Source: Omnitrophica bacterium RIFCSPLOWO2_12_FULL_50_11
GTDB lineage: Bacteria > Omnitrophota > Omnitrophia > Omnitrophales > Danuiimicrobiaceae
Reading direction: 5' to 3'
DNA length: 64,000 nucleotides
Assembly (NCBI GenBank): GCA_001804315.1
Contig: MHFT01000050.1
Location: 4,600-68,599, forward strand
The translations under genes and the position numbers were made by a program. The notes under the pieces are model-generated. The model was not told the DNA's origin and made no database searches. It was given only the letters and a program-made list of their open reading frames with translations. Below are positions 31,304-33,568 of the stretch, piece by piece. The stretch's first letter is position 1, and each line of letters opens with the position of its first letter.

Positions 31304-31330
31304 TTAGCAGCCCTTAGTCCTGAGTGCTAA
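31304..31330. promoter_or_regulatory. CIRCE-like HrcA operator, copy 1 (TTAGCAGCC-N9-GAGTGCTAA)
   Basis: Right half-site perfect, left half-site has 2 mismatches to TTAGCACTC. Confidence 0.5.
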
Positions 31331-31356
31331 TCATTTTTTAGAGGTAATTTTTTCAG

Positions 31357-31421
31357 TTGACTCTTTTTCGAAACATGGTATCATCACACCTTCGTTAGCA
31401 CTCTGATCGGTCGAGTGCCAA
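31357..31421 (+). promoter_or_regulatory. groEL promoter (TTGACT-16-TATCAT) followed immediately by a CIRCE element TTAGCACTC-N9-GAGTGCCAA
   Basis: -35 at 31357-31362, -10 at 31379-31384, CIRCE at 31395-31421 with 1 mismatch to consensus. Confidence 0.7.
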
Positions 31422-31522
31422 AGTAGAGGAAGTCCAGTTCGTCTGGATTTTGCCGGAATGTAGTTGCTGTTATGACTCAGCATTTGTTGCTTCAATAGTC
31501 AAACTAAAGGAGGAAATTAGAA

Positions 31523-33151
31523 ATGGCGAAGAAACAAATCTCGTTTTCGGATGAAGCAAGACGCGCGATTTTGCGCGGGGTGGATCAATTGGCGAATGCG
31601 GTGAGAGTGACACTCGGTCCAAAAGGCCGGAATGTGGTCCTCGATAAGAAATTCGGTTCGCCGACGATTACTAAAGATGGAGTTACTGTTGCAAAAGAAA
31701 TTGAGCTTGCAGAGCCGTATGAAAACATGGGCGCCCAAATGGTAAAAGAGGTAGCTTCCAAAACGTCAGATGCTGCAGGGGATGGAACGACAACGGCTAC
31801 CATTTTGGCTCAGGCGATTTATCGGGAGGGTCTTAAGAACGTGACTGCAGGCGCCAATCCAATGTCCTTAAAACGCGGTATTGAGAAAGCAGTGGCAGCT
31901 GTTGTGGAGGAACTTGGTGAGTTATCCAAGTCGGTAAAGGACAAGAAGGAAATTGCTCAGATTGCCACCATCGCCGCGAATTCGGACAAAACGATTGGGG
32001 ATCAACTTGCCGAAGCCATGGATAAGGTAGGCAAAGACGGCGTCATTACGGTGGAAGAATCCAAAACCGTCGAGACGACACTGGATATCGTCGAGGGAAT
32101 GCAATTTGATCAAGGTTATCTTTCTCCCTATTTCGTGACGGACACGGAGCGGATGGAAGCGTTTTTGGAAGATCCTTATATTTTGATTCATGAAAAGAAG
32201 ATCTCAGCAATGAAGGATCTGCTTCCGCTTTTGGAGTCAATCGCCAAGGTCGGCAAGCCGCTTCTCATCGTTGCAGAAGAAGTAGAGGGGGAAGCTCTAG
32301 CGACGCTGGTTGTGAACAAAATCCGCGGAACTCTTGCCGCCTGTGCCGTGAAAGCGCCCGGCTATGGGGACCGGAGGAAGGCGATGCTGGAAGATATTGC
32401 TACCTTGACTGGGGGAAAAGCCCTGACCGAAGATCTTGGGATCAAGCTTGAGAACGTAACGATCAAAGATCTCGGCCGTGCAAAACGAGTCACCGTTGAC
32501 AAAGAGAATACGACCATTATCGAAGGTGCTGGCAGCAGTTCCGACATTAATGGCCGGATTAACCAGATTAAGCGGCAAATCGAGGAGACAGATTCCGATT
32601 ATGACCGTGAGAAACTTCAGGAACGGCTCGCCAAGTTGGCAGGCGGTGTGGCAGTCGTCAACGTGGGCGCTGCAACCGAAACCGAGATGAAGGAAAAGAA
32701 AGCGCGTGTCGAAGATGCACTTCACGCCACACGGGCAGCGGTCGAAGAAGGGATTGTTGCCGGCGGGGGTGTCGCGTTGGTCAGAGCGCGGGCAGTGCTC
32801 GGTAACTTAAGATTGTCAGGCGATGAAAAAGTGGGAGTTCAGATCGTATACCGTGCGGTCGAAGAGCCGCTGCGCCAGCTGGCTGCAAACGCTGGTGACG
32901 AAGGTTCTGTGATTGTCCAGAAGGTGATCGCAGAAAAGGGTAACATTGGCTATGACGCTCAGACCGGCGAAATCACGGATCTAATCGCTAGAGGAATCAT
33001 TGATCCGAAGAAGGTGACACGTACGGCGCTTGAAAATGCTGCCAGCATTGCAGGTCTTCTCTTAACGACCGAAGCACTCGTGACAGAAGTACCGGAAGAG
33101 GAAAAAACAGCTGCAGCGCCCGGAATGCCGCCTGGCGGCGGAATGTATTAA
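31523..33151 (+). CDS. groEL: Chaperonin GroEL
   Basis: [40 protein letters not shown]..., C-terminal GGM-type tail PPGGGMY. Confidence 0.95.
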
Positions 33152-33280
33152 TATTGAAGAATCGAGAATAAAAAAGCACAAGGCAGTAGCGCGGTAAGCA
33201 GCACACATAAGATCGGTTTCATTGCATGTGGCCGACTGCCTGGTGCCGAGAGTTATACTGACATTAGGAGGGTAGACGAA

Positions 33281-33568
33281 ATGAGCATTAAACCGTTGGG
33301 CGACCGAGTACTGGTTGAGGTTCTGGAAGCGGAAGAGAAGACAAAGGGAGGGATTATTCTTCCAGATACCGCAAAGGAAGAAAAAACAGAGGGAAAGATC
33401 GTTTCGATTGGACTTGGAAAAGTACTGGAATCGGGTAAGAGGCAGCCAATCGACGTGAAAAAAGGCGACCGCATCATTTTTGGAAAATATCACGGAGACG
33501 AAATCTTGATTGACGGTAAAAAGCATAAGGTCCTCAAAGAAGAAGATATCCTCGCCGTTTACGGATAA
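33281..33568 (+). CDS. groES: Co-chaperonin GroES, located downstream of groEL
   Basis: MSIKPLGDRVLVEVLEAEEKTKGGIILPDTAKEEKTEGKIVSIG. SD AGGAGGG upstream. Confidence 0.9.
   Translation: MSIKPLGDRVLVEVLEAEEKTKGGIILPDTAKEEKTEGKIVSIGLGKVLESGKRQPIDVKKGDRIIFGKYHGDEILIDGKKHKVLKEEDILAVYG

Follow-up and report, generated by a model that had tools for sequence, protein, structure and literature searches.

Few operon arrangements in bacteria are as conserved as the order groES-groEL. Where the operon is controlled by HrcA and the CIRCE (controlling inverted repeat of chaperone expression) operator, as in Bacillus subtilis and, within the PVC (Planctomycetes-Verrucomicrobia-Chlamydiae) group, in the Chlamydiae, a sigma-70-like promoter is followed immediately by CIRCE. 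A survey of 4,861 genomes found groES always upstream where a genome has a single groEL (PMC5406781). In bacteria with several chaperonins (mycobacteria, Myxococcus, and cyanobacteria), the paralog without a Gly-Met tail is dispensable (Lund 2009, cited in PMC5406781 and PMC11978752); more generally, Gly-Met-tailed paralogs are usually essential and others often dispensable (PMC11978752). In the described multi-chaperonin cases, groES precedes the groEL with which it is clustered, and an extra groEL usually stands alone. Here, we analyzed the chaperonin locus in a stretch of 64,000 nucleotides from Omnitrophica bacterium RIFCSPLOWO2_12_FULL_50_11 (contig MHFT01000050.1, positions 4,600 to 68,599; the whole stretch is called the window below), in which groEL precedes groES. 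With a probability of about 0.8, we read this locus as a functional heat-shock operon of the HrcA/CIRCE type whose groEL-groES order derives from a groEL1-groES-groEL2 operon of its clade by loss of groEL2.

An earlier note on this DNA had placed groEL before a groES with its own Shine-Dalgarno sequence, and both protein profiles and the sequence itself agree, with a spacer of 129 nt between the genes. The note's promoter, near-consensus CIRCE, and second CIRCE with a perfect right half were also found as described. The features of the locus are as follows.

31304..31330, plus strand: distal CIRCE-like operator TTAGCAGCC-N9-GAGTGCTAA (2 mismatches, right half perfect; ends 27 nt 5' of the -35 hexamer)
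31357..31384, plus strand: sigma-70-like promoter TTGACT-16-(TG)TATCAT (10/12 matches, TG extension)
31395..31421, plus strand: proximal CIRCE TTAGCACTC-N9-GAGTGCCAA (1 mismatch; starts 10 nt after the -10 hexamer)
31507..31513, plus strand: Shine-Dalgarno sequence AAGGAGG of groEL (read from the sequence, 9 nt 5' of the ATG)
31523..33151, plus strand: groEL, GroEL1 type, 542 aa (matches to the TIGR02348 and Pfam Cpn60_TCP1 profiles)
33152..33280, plus strand: groEL-groES spacer, 129 nt, containing the groES Shine-Dalgarno sequence
33266-33272, plus strand: Shine-Dalgarno sequence AGGAGGG of groES (8 nt 5' of the groES ATG)
33281..33568, plus strand: groES, 95 aa, of a clade-specific type (KEEKTEGK, DGKKHK, LAVY; matches to Pfam Cpn10 and NF001531)
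33595..33643, plus strand: hairpin after groES (perfect 13-bp arms, 33600-33612 and 33625-33637)

Both genes are intact and lie on the same strand as their neighbors. The window GroEL matched TIGR02348 at 858 bits (cut-off 582; model positions 2-526 of 526) and Pfam Cpn60_TCP1 at 260 bits. Its ATPase residues (D52, D87-GTTT, and D398) and the apical hydrophobic residues that bind GroES and substrate are all intact, and its C-terminal tail is of the Gly-Met type (residues are numbered on an E. coli GroEL reference, which had the expected residues at the positions checked). GroES matched the full-length Pfam Cpn10 domain (116 bits, cut-off 21; positions 2-93 of 93) and NF001531 (119.6 bits, cut-off 96), and its mobile loop, EEKTKGGIILPDTAKEE, aligned with other GroES sequences. 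Like a canonical groESL operon, the locus therefore combines a Gly-Met-tailed group I GroEL with GroES in one cluster on one strand; unlike it, groES is not directly 5' of groEL but 129 nt downstream, and a second, distal CIRCE lies 5' of the -35 hexamer. Searches with tblastn (E<=10) bore out the claim that no groES lies upstream, where msrAB ends at 31169: no groES or groES remnant was detected in the 353 nt 5' of groEL, and no other groES or groEL within the 64 kb. Two independent metagenome assemblies (L001 and L002; related loci are cited by L numbers) contain the identical groE locus, and the same order recurs in the related contigs L084, L089, L095, and L097, which rules out an assembly artifact. 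Horizontal transfer or a mobile element was likewise ruled out, given a uniform GC content (0.46-0.55) and no flanking repeats.

The order is rare. Scanning one genome per species with the window GroEL as the query gave 80 loci in which groES and groEL were mapped, and in about 76 of them groES lay directly 5' of groEL, in line with the earlier statement that almost all bacteria have groES-groEL. One locus (L051) was cut at its end and was not scored for order, L022 had groES-groEL-groES, and the best match, L003 (Omnitrophota metagenome-assembled genome [MAG] nzgw332; 80% GroEL identity), had groEL-groES-groEL. Among the metagenome loci outside the window's clade that were complete enough to judge, all were canonical except five with groES-groEL-groES; almost all of the 162 related loci are canonical groES-groEL. 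In the literature searched, we found no relevant description of a groEL-groES or groEL-groES-groEL operon, or of Omnitrophota chaperonins. Another of the 80 genome loci, in a Nitrospiraceae MAG (L032, 5001-6599), carries a groEL 73% identical to that of the window; it stands alone, since no groES lies within 5 kb on either side.

In a metagenome scan with the GroES of the window and of L003, 20 contigs carried a GroES with 70-83% identity to that of the window; all other contigs returned were at <=62%, and by direct alignment L013 and L016, the closest of the canonical genome loci, reached 64-66%. In 14 of these 20 contigs, as in L003, the genes are groEL1 (78-88% identical to the window GroEL), groES, and a second groEL, groEL2 (61-71%). 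Two further contigs, cut at the 5' side, show groES-groEL2, and the same three genes are present in three loci found via GroEL2 homologs (L163, L164, and L165). The three-gene form is represented by L003, L083, L085, L087, L088, L090-L094, L096, L098, L099, L101, L102, and L163-L165. The clade with groEL1-groES-groEL2 is monophyletic and consists of uncultured PVC bacteria, probably Omnitrophota, which is the label they bear wherever a name is given. Hence, of the earlier suggestion that the window carries a lineage-specific rearrangement, the lineage specificity stands; the idea of an inverted bicistron does not, since comparison with related groE loci showed the two-gene reversed order in L084, L089, L095, and L097 and the three-gene form in most clade relatives, from which the window differs by the missing groEL2. 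The suggestion that the order is a phylogenetic signature also holds: because it is lineage-specific, it can be used as a clade marker.

The three genes form one CIRCE-controlled operon, as indicated by a single promoter and CIRCE 5' of groEL1, no CIRCE between the genes in nine clade loci, and short spacers. Relatives have groEL1-groES spacers of 33 to 176 nt (L084, the sister locus, has 34 nt), and the shortest spacers, 33 nt for groEL1-groES and 2 nt for groES-groEL2 in L085, imply one transcript. The earlier note had also proposed that the reversed order changes the stoichiometry logic of the operon; this found no support, as each cistron has its own Shine-Dalgarno sequence and the spacer varies over the range just given. 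In L003, both operon spacers hold long imperfect palindromes (6680-6770 and 7090-7210; GTCATTCTGAGCGCAGCGAAGAATC...GAATGAC and TGTCATTGCGAGC...GCAATGACA), which from their sequence look like small repeat elements inserted between groE genes.

The setting of the operon is shared as well. Upstream neighbors in the clade are alr, a BPL/LplA-like gene, coaX, and in some loci an open reading frame (ORF) of 148 aa (orf148), and L164 and L165 have alr, the lplA-like gene, coaX, and orf148 upstream, as in the window. Downstream, the gene order is coaX-groEL1-groES-groEL2-IMPDH-like-guaA in L085 and groEL1-groES-groEL2-IMPDH-like-guaA-dnaE in L099; in the window, groES is followed by the IMPDH-like gene, guaA, and dnaE. 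The window thus has GroEL1 and the clade GroES between the clade's neighbors on both sides (alr, lplA-like, coaX ... IMPDH-like, guaA, dnaE) and nothing at the position of groEL2. Compared with the three-gene operons of the clade, such as those of L003, L085, L099, and L164, its GroEL (78-91% identical to GroEL1) and GroES (70-84%) are orthologous and the promoter-CIRCE arrangement and flanks are the same; unlike them, it lacks groEL2 and has msrAB and an apparently duplicated small ORF inserted upstream. We conclude that the window locus is a derivative of the three-gene operon minus one gene and not a full member.

GroEL1 has the canonical Gly-Met (GGM) tail, shares 76-78% identity with the one canonical GroEL that other Omnitrophota carry, and nests among those GroELs in a neighbor-joining tree, with the window GroEL inside the GroEL1 clade. 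For the clade GroES, the closest sequences are those of other Omnitrophota. GroEL2 forms a separate, monophyletic, long-branched group that shares about 67% identity with GroEL1 and with all other sequences compared, and is faster evolving (within-group identity of 77% versus 82% for GroEL1). Its tail is rich in Lys and Glu without GGM repeats, and some members have His-rich ends (HHGHAH and SHSH). The group comprises >100 clusters, whose named sources are almost all Candidatus Omnitrophica or Omnitrophota GroEL, and most members keep the ATPase and apical binding residues. Judged by these features, GroEL1 looks like the housekeeping copy, and GroEL2 is taken to be a divergent accessory paralog. 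As in other multi-chaperonin bacteria, the clade thus pairs a conserved Gly-Met copy with a faster-evolving copy with a charged, sometimes His-rich, tail, and the divergent copy is the one lost; here, however, the housekeeping groEL is 5' of groES, and the divergent copy occupies the canonical downstream place. Two side observations concern GroEL2: the His-rich tails recall the tail of mycobacterial GroEL1, and one GroEL2-like protein (P0002; GroEL2 homologs carry P numbers) on a 3-kb contig is 741 aa long, about 200 aa over normal, which could reflect a fusion or a miscalled start.

Within the window's sub-clade, GroEL2 has changed at residues that are invariant elsewhere in the family. Y203H and R452F are seen in L164 and L165, and L092, L163, P0004, and P0005 additionally have T91S, Y199F, and D398N; overall, the sub-clade substitutions are T91S, Y199F, Y203H, D398N, and R452F/H (L092, 6435-8066; L163, 5001-6629; P0003, P0004, P0005, P0009, and P0010). 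In E. coli GroEL, ATP hydrolysis is slowed by mutation of Asp398, the catalytic residue. The pattern fits a GroEL2 whose function may have shifted or relaxed before the gene was lost.

A bootstrapped neighbor-joining tree of GroEL1 and GroES placed seven contigs in a sub-clade at 100% bootstrap. The window and L084, both groEL-groES only, group at 100%, and their sister group, ((L164, L165), (L163, (L092, L089))), has the three-gene form except for L089. L095 and L097, also without groEL2, cluster with L089. This topology implies two independent losses of groEL2, one in (window, L084) and one in (L089, L095, L097), so that the gene appears to have been lost at least twice in the window's sub-clade. 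No groEL2 remnant was detected after groES in the window (33560-33800), L084, L089, L095, or L097, where only chance-level fragments were returned (E>=0.01), and no groEL2 was found anywhere in the 64-kb window. Nor is there a sign of relocation, because the four nearest homologs of the sub-clade GroEL2 (P0003, P0005, P0009, and P0010) all directly follow groES and none stands alone. The sequence after groES differs among the two-gene loci: the IMPDH-like gene follows directly in the window, Trk-type potassium transporter genes in L084, and HigB/HigA-like toxin-antitoxin genes in L095 (2802-3388) and L097 (1424-2010), the last two assignments being judged from ORF translations. Among the relatives with all three genes, the stretch that follows groEL2 also varies and holds many toxin-antitoxin genes. 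The variation between close relatives, repeatedly with toxin-antitoxin-like pairs near groE (HigB/HigA-like, BrnT/CopG, and Gp49/HTH; L095, L097, L164 6898-7429, and the P0005 contig), suggests that the region 3' of the groE cluster is an insertion-deletion hotspot, which may have favored groEL2 loss. Apart from this, groEL1 of L095 (47-1879) is split into two overlapping reading-frame segments, by a frameshift or an assembly error.

The regulatory region of the window resembles that of its relatives. Against the consensus TTAGCACTC-N9-GAGTGCTAA, the window's only two CIRCE matches are the two listed above, with 0.03 expected by chance and two matches reached in 0/100 shuffles; CIRCE thus stands at a vegetative promoter, as in the HrcA/CIRCE regulon, with two sites of 1 and 2 mismatches. 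TTGACT-16-TATCAT is the only plus-strand promoter-like site in 31100-33850, and because the proximal CIRCE begins 10 nt past the -10 hexamer, it lies at about the transcription start. Equivalent TTGACA/TATnAT promoters precede CIRCE in relatives. CIRCE is found 5' of groEL1 at the same position in nine clade loci (L003, L083, L085, L089, L090, L092, L093, L099, and L102), in five of which the proximal CIRCE was aligned; no match with <=3 mismatches was found 5' of groEL1 in L096 or L098. More widely, 90 of the 162 groE loci scanned for it carry a CIRCE. The distal CIRCE is absent from the aligned upstream regions of L089, L092, L083, L085, and L090 and is particular to the window among the relatives examined, where it coincides with the msrAB insertion upstream. 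The groEL-groES spacer (33152-33280) has no promoter-like site and no significant structure (fold z = -1.0), and its length is not conserved, which speaks against an internal promoter or structured element there. The hairpin after groES (-40.7 kcal/mol; z = -3.96) occupies the place taken by groEL2 in relatives and is probably a terminator or a 3' stabilizer.

Known HrcA/CIRCE biology suggests how the locus would work. One sigma-70-like promoter would drive co-transcription of groEL and groES, and an HrcA homolog occupying the proximal CIRCE at the transcription start would repress it at normal temperature and release it on protein-folding stress. The distal CIRCE may aid repression, perhaps cooperatively; alternatively, and speculatively, it could block read-through from msrAB. 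As the distal cistron, groES would be translated independently from its own Shine-Dalgarno sequence, and GroEL1-GroES would be the main or only chaperonin system of the organism. In the ancestral operon, the housekeeping GroEL1 gene would have been 5' of groES and the accessory GroEL2 gene 3' in the canonical place. In the lineage of the window and its sister L084, groEL2 would then have been cleanly deleted, leaving groEL1-groES, the hairpin, the IMPDH-like gene, guaA, and dnaE in the window.

It is unlikely, though the earlier note had raised the case, that a canonical groES-groEL elsewhere does the housekeeping and that this locus is a paralogous groE of secondary rank. Multiple chaperonin genes are common in the clade, with groEL2 in most relatives; another Omnitrophota group has two groES genes; and our analysis covers 64 kb of the genome. 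However, the window GroEL is slow evolving, Gly-Met tailed, and closest to the single canonical Omnitrophota GroEL, and the locus belongs to a block whose synteny is kept throughout the clade and carries a promoter with CIRCE. The 64 kb holds no second groE copy, and no stand-alone groEL2 occurs among the closest homologs. That last point also bears on whether groEL2 was moved elsewhere in the genome, with groES serving two chaperonins, which we consider quite improbable. Stand-alone groELs served by a groES at another place in the genome are well documented, Myxococcus being one case (PMC5406781), and the region 3' of groE is variable, with toxin-antitoxin genes in relatives; yet groES immediately precedes the genes for P0003, P0005, P0009, and P0010, and the sub-clade changes at otherwise invariant GroEL2 residues, including D398N, are compatible with a relaxed or shifted function before loss. 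Taken by itself, the window, with two reversed genes and no trace of a third, could suggest that an ancestral groES-groEL bicistron was locally swapped or inverted without duplication. This is very improbable indeed: groEL1-groES-groEL2 with the same flanks is found in every outgroup that belongs to the clade and in most members of the closest sub-clade, the orthologs of the window GroEL and GroES in the three-gene operons are GroEL1 and the middle GroES, and both genes are on the strand of their neighbors, with no flanking inverted repeats.

Several points weigh against derivation of a functional HrcA/CIRCE operon by groEL2 loss. A second groES-groEL or a moved groEL2 may lie outside the 64 kb searched. 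No hrcA was found among the 25 window ORFs scanned against Pfam (other ORFs of HrcA size were not all scanned), unlike the canonical HrcA/CIRCE system, so that only the motifs speak for the predicted HrcA regulation. The hairpin after groES has no U tract. GroEL2 is on a long branch without a clear sister, and the tree favors neither duplication nor transfer as its origin. The trees are neighbor-joining trees of one or two proteins, and the assignment to Omnitrophota (PVC group) draws only on GroEL/GroES similarity, synteny, and MAG labels. We lean only slightly toward the fuller statement that the lineage of the window and L084 stably keeps a single groEL and groES, in the order groEL-groES, from an undescribed clade-wide operon whose GroEL2 is repeatedly lost after Asp398 and apical changes.

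The groES-groEL-groES form belongs to another Omnitrophota-like group (L022, 2550-4952; L105, L112, L118, L119, and L120). Its downstream GroES proteins are about 79% identical between loci and 54-60% identical to the first GroES of their own locus, and CIRCE stands 5' of the first groES. Noncanonical groE clusters thus seem to be recurrent in Omnitrophota. We considered whether the window-type GroES corresponds to the second GroES of these loci, through a common four-gene tandem ancestor; the identity of 52-58% does not support this, and such an ancestor is also disfavored by the finding that the GroELs of groES-groEL-groES loci are not sister to GroEL1.

The surroundings of the locus gave further observations. 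The 5' neighbor, msrAB (30039-31169), is an msrA-msrB fusion (PMSR+SelR) and sits between the small ORFs and groEL only in the window's lineage. These small ORFs, 28996-29460 (154 aa) and 29483-29929 (148 aa, without a Pfam match), are adjacent, and both match the single 148-aa ORF 5' of groEL1 in L164/L165 (33-36% and 57% identity, respectively); by this similarity, they look like a tandem duplication. Directly after groES, 33792-34952 encodes a 386-aa protein of the IMPDH/GMP-reductase family, next to guaA, that aligns to the 345-position IMPDH profile over positions 2-269 only; the position of this gene is conserved in L084, L085, and L099. Known RNA families at gathering score in the window were limited to one tRNA and a class A RNase P RNA (50855-51358; 228 bits), both away from groE. 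The RNase P RNA spans 504 nt for a 367-position model and therefore carries sizeable insertions.

The components and the regulatory logic of the window locus are all of known kinds, and no long-standing question is opened by it. Nevertheless, a reversed order in an operon of the housekeeping type means that the canonical order is not mechanistically obligatory, and the relatives allow a route to be read: a chaperonin gene was added, leaving the housekeeping copy 5' of groES, and the downstream paralog diverged and was then lost. The order provides a clade marker for a poorly known phylum, and the undescribed GroEL2 family, whose tail is charged or His-rich and some of whose members carry D398N, may have a specialized role. 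If the organism does have a single groEL and groES in this arrangement, it would be a natural exception to the statement that groES is always upstream (PMC5406781), and the clade would offer a natural experiment on cistron order versus GroEL:GroES balance.

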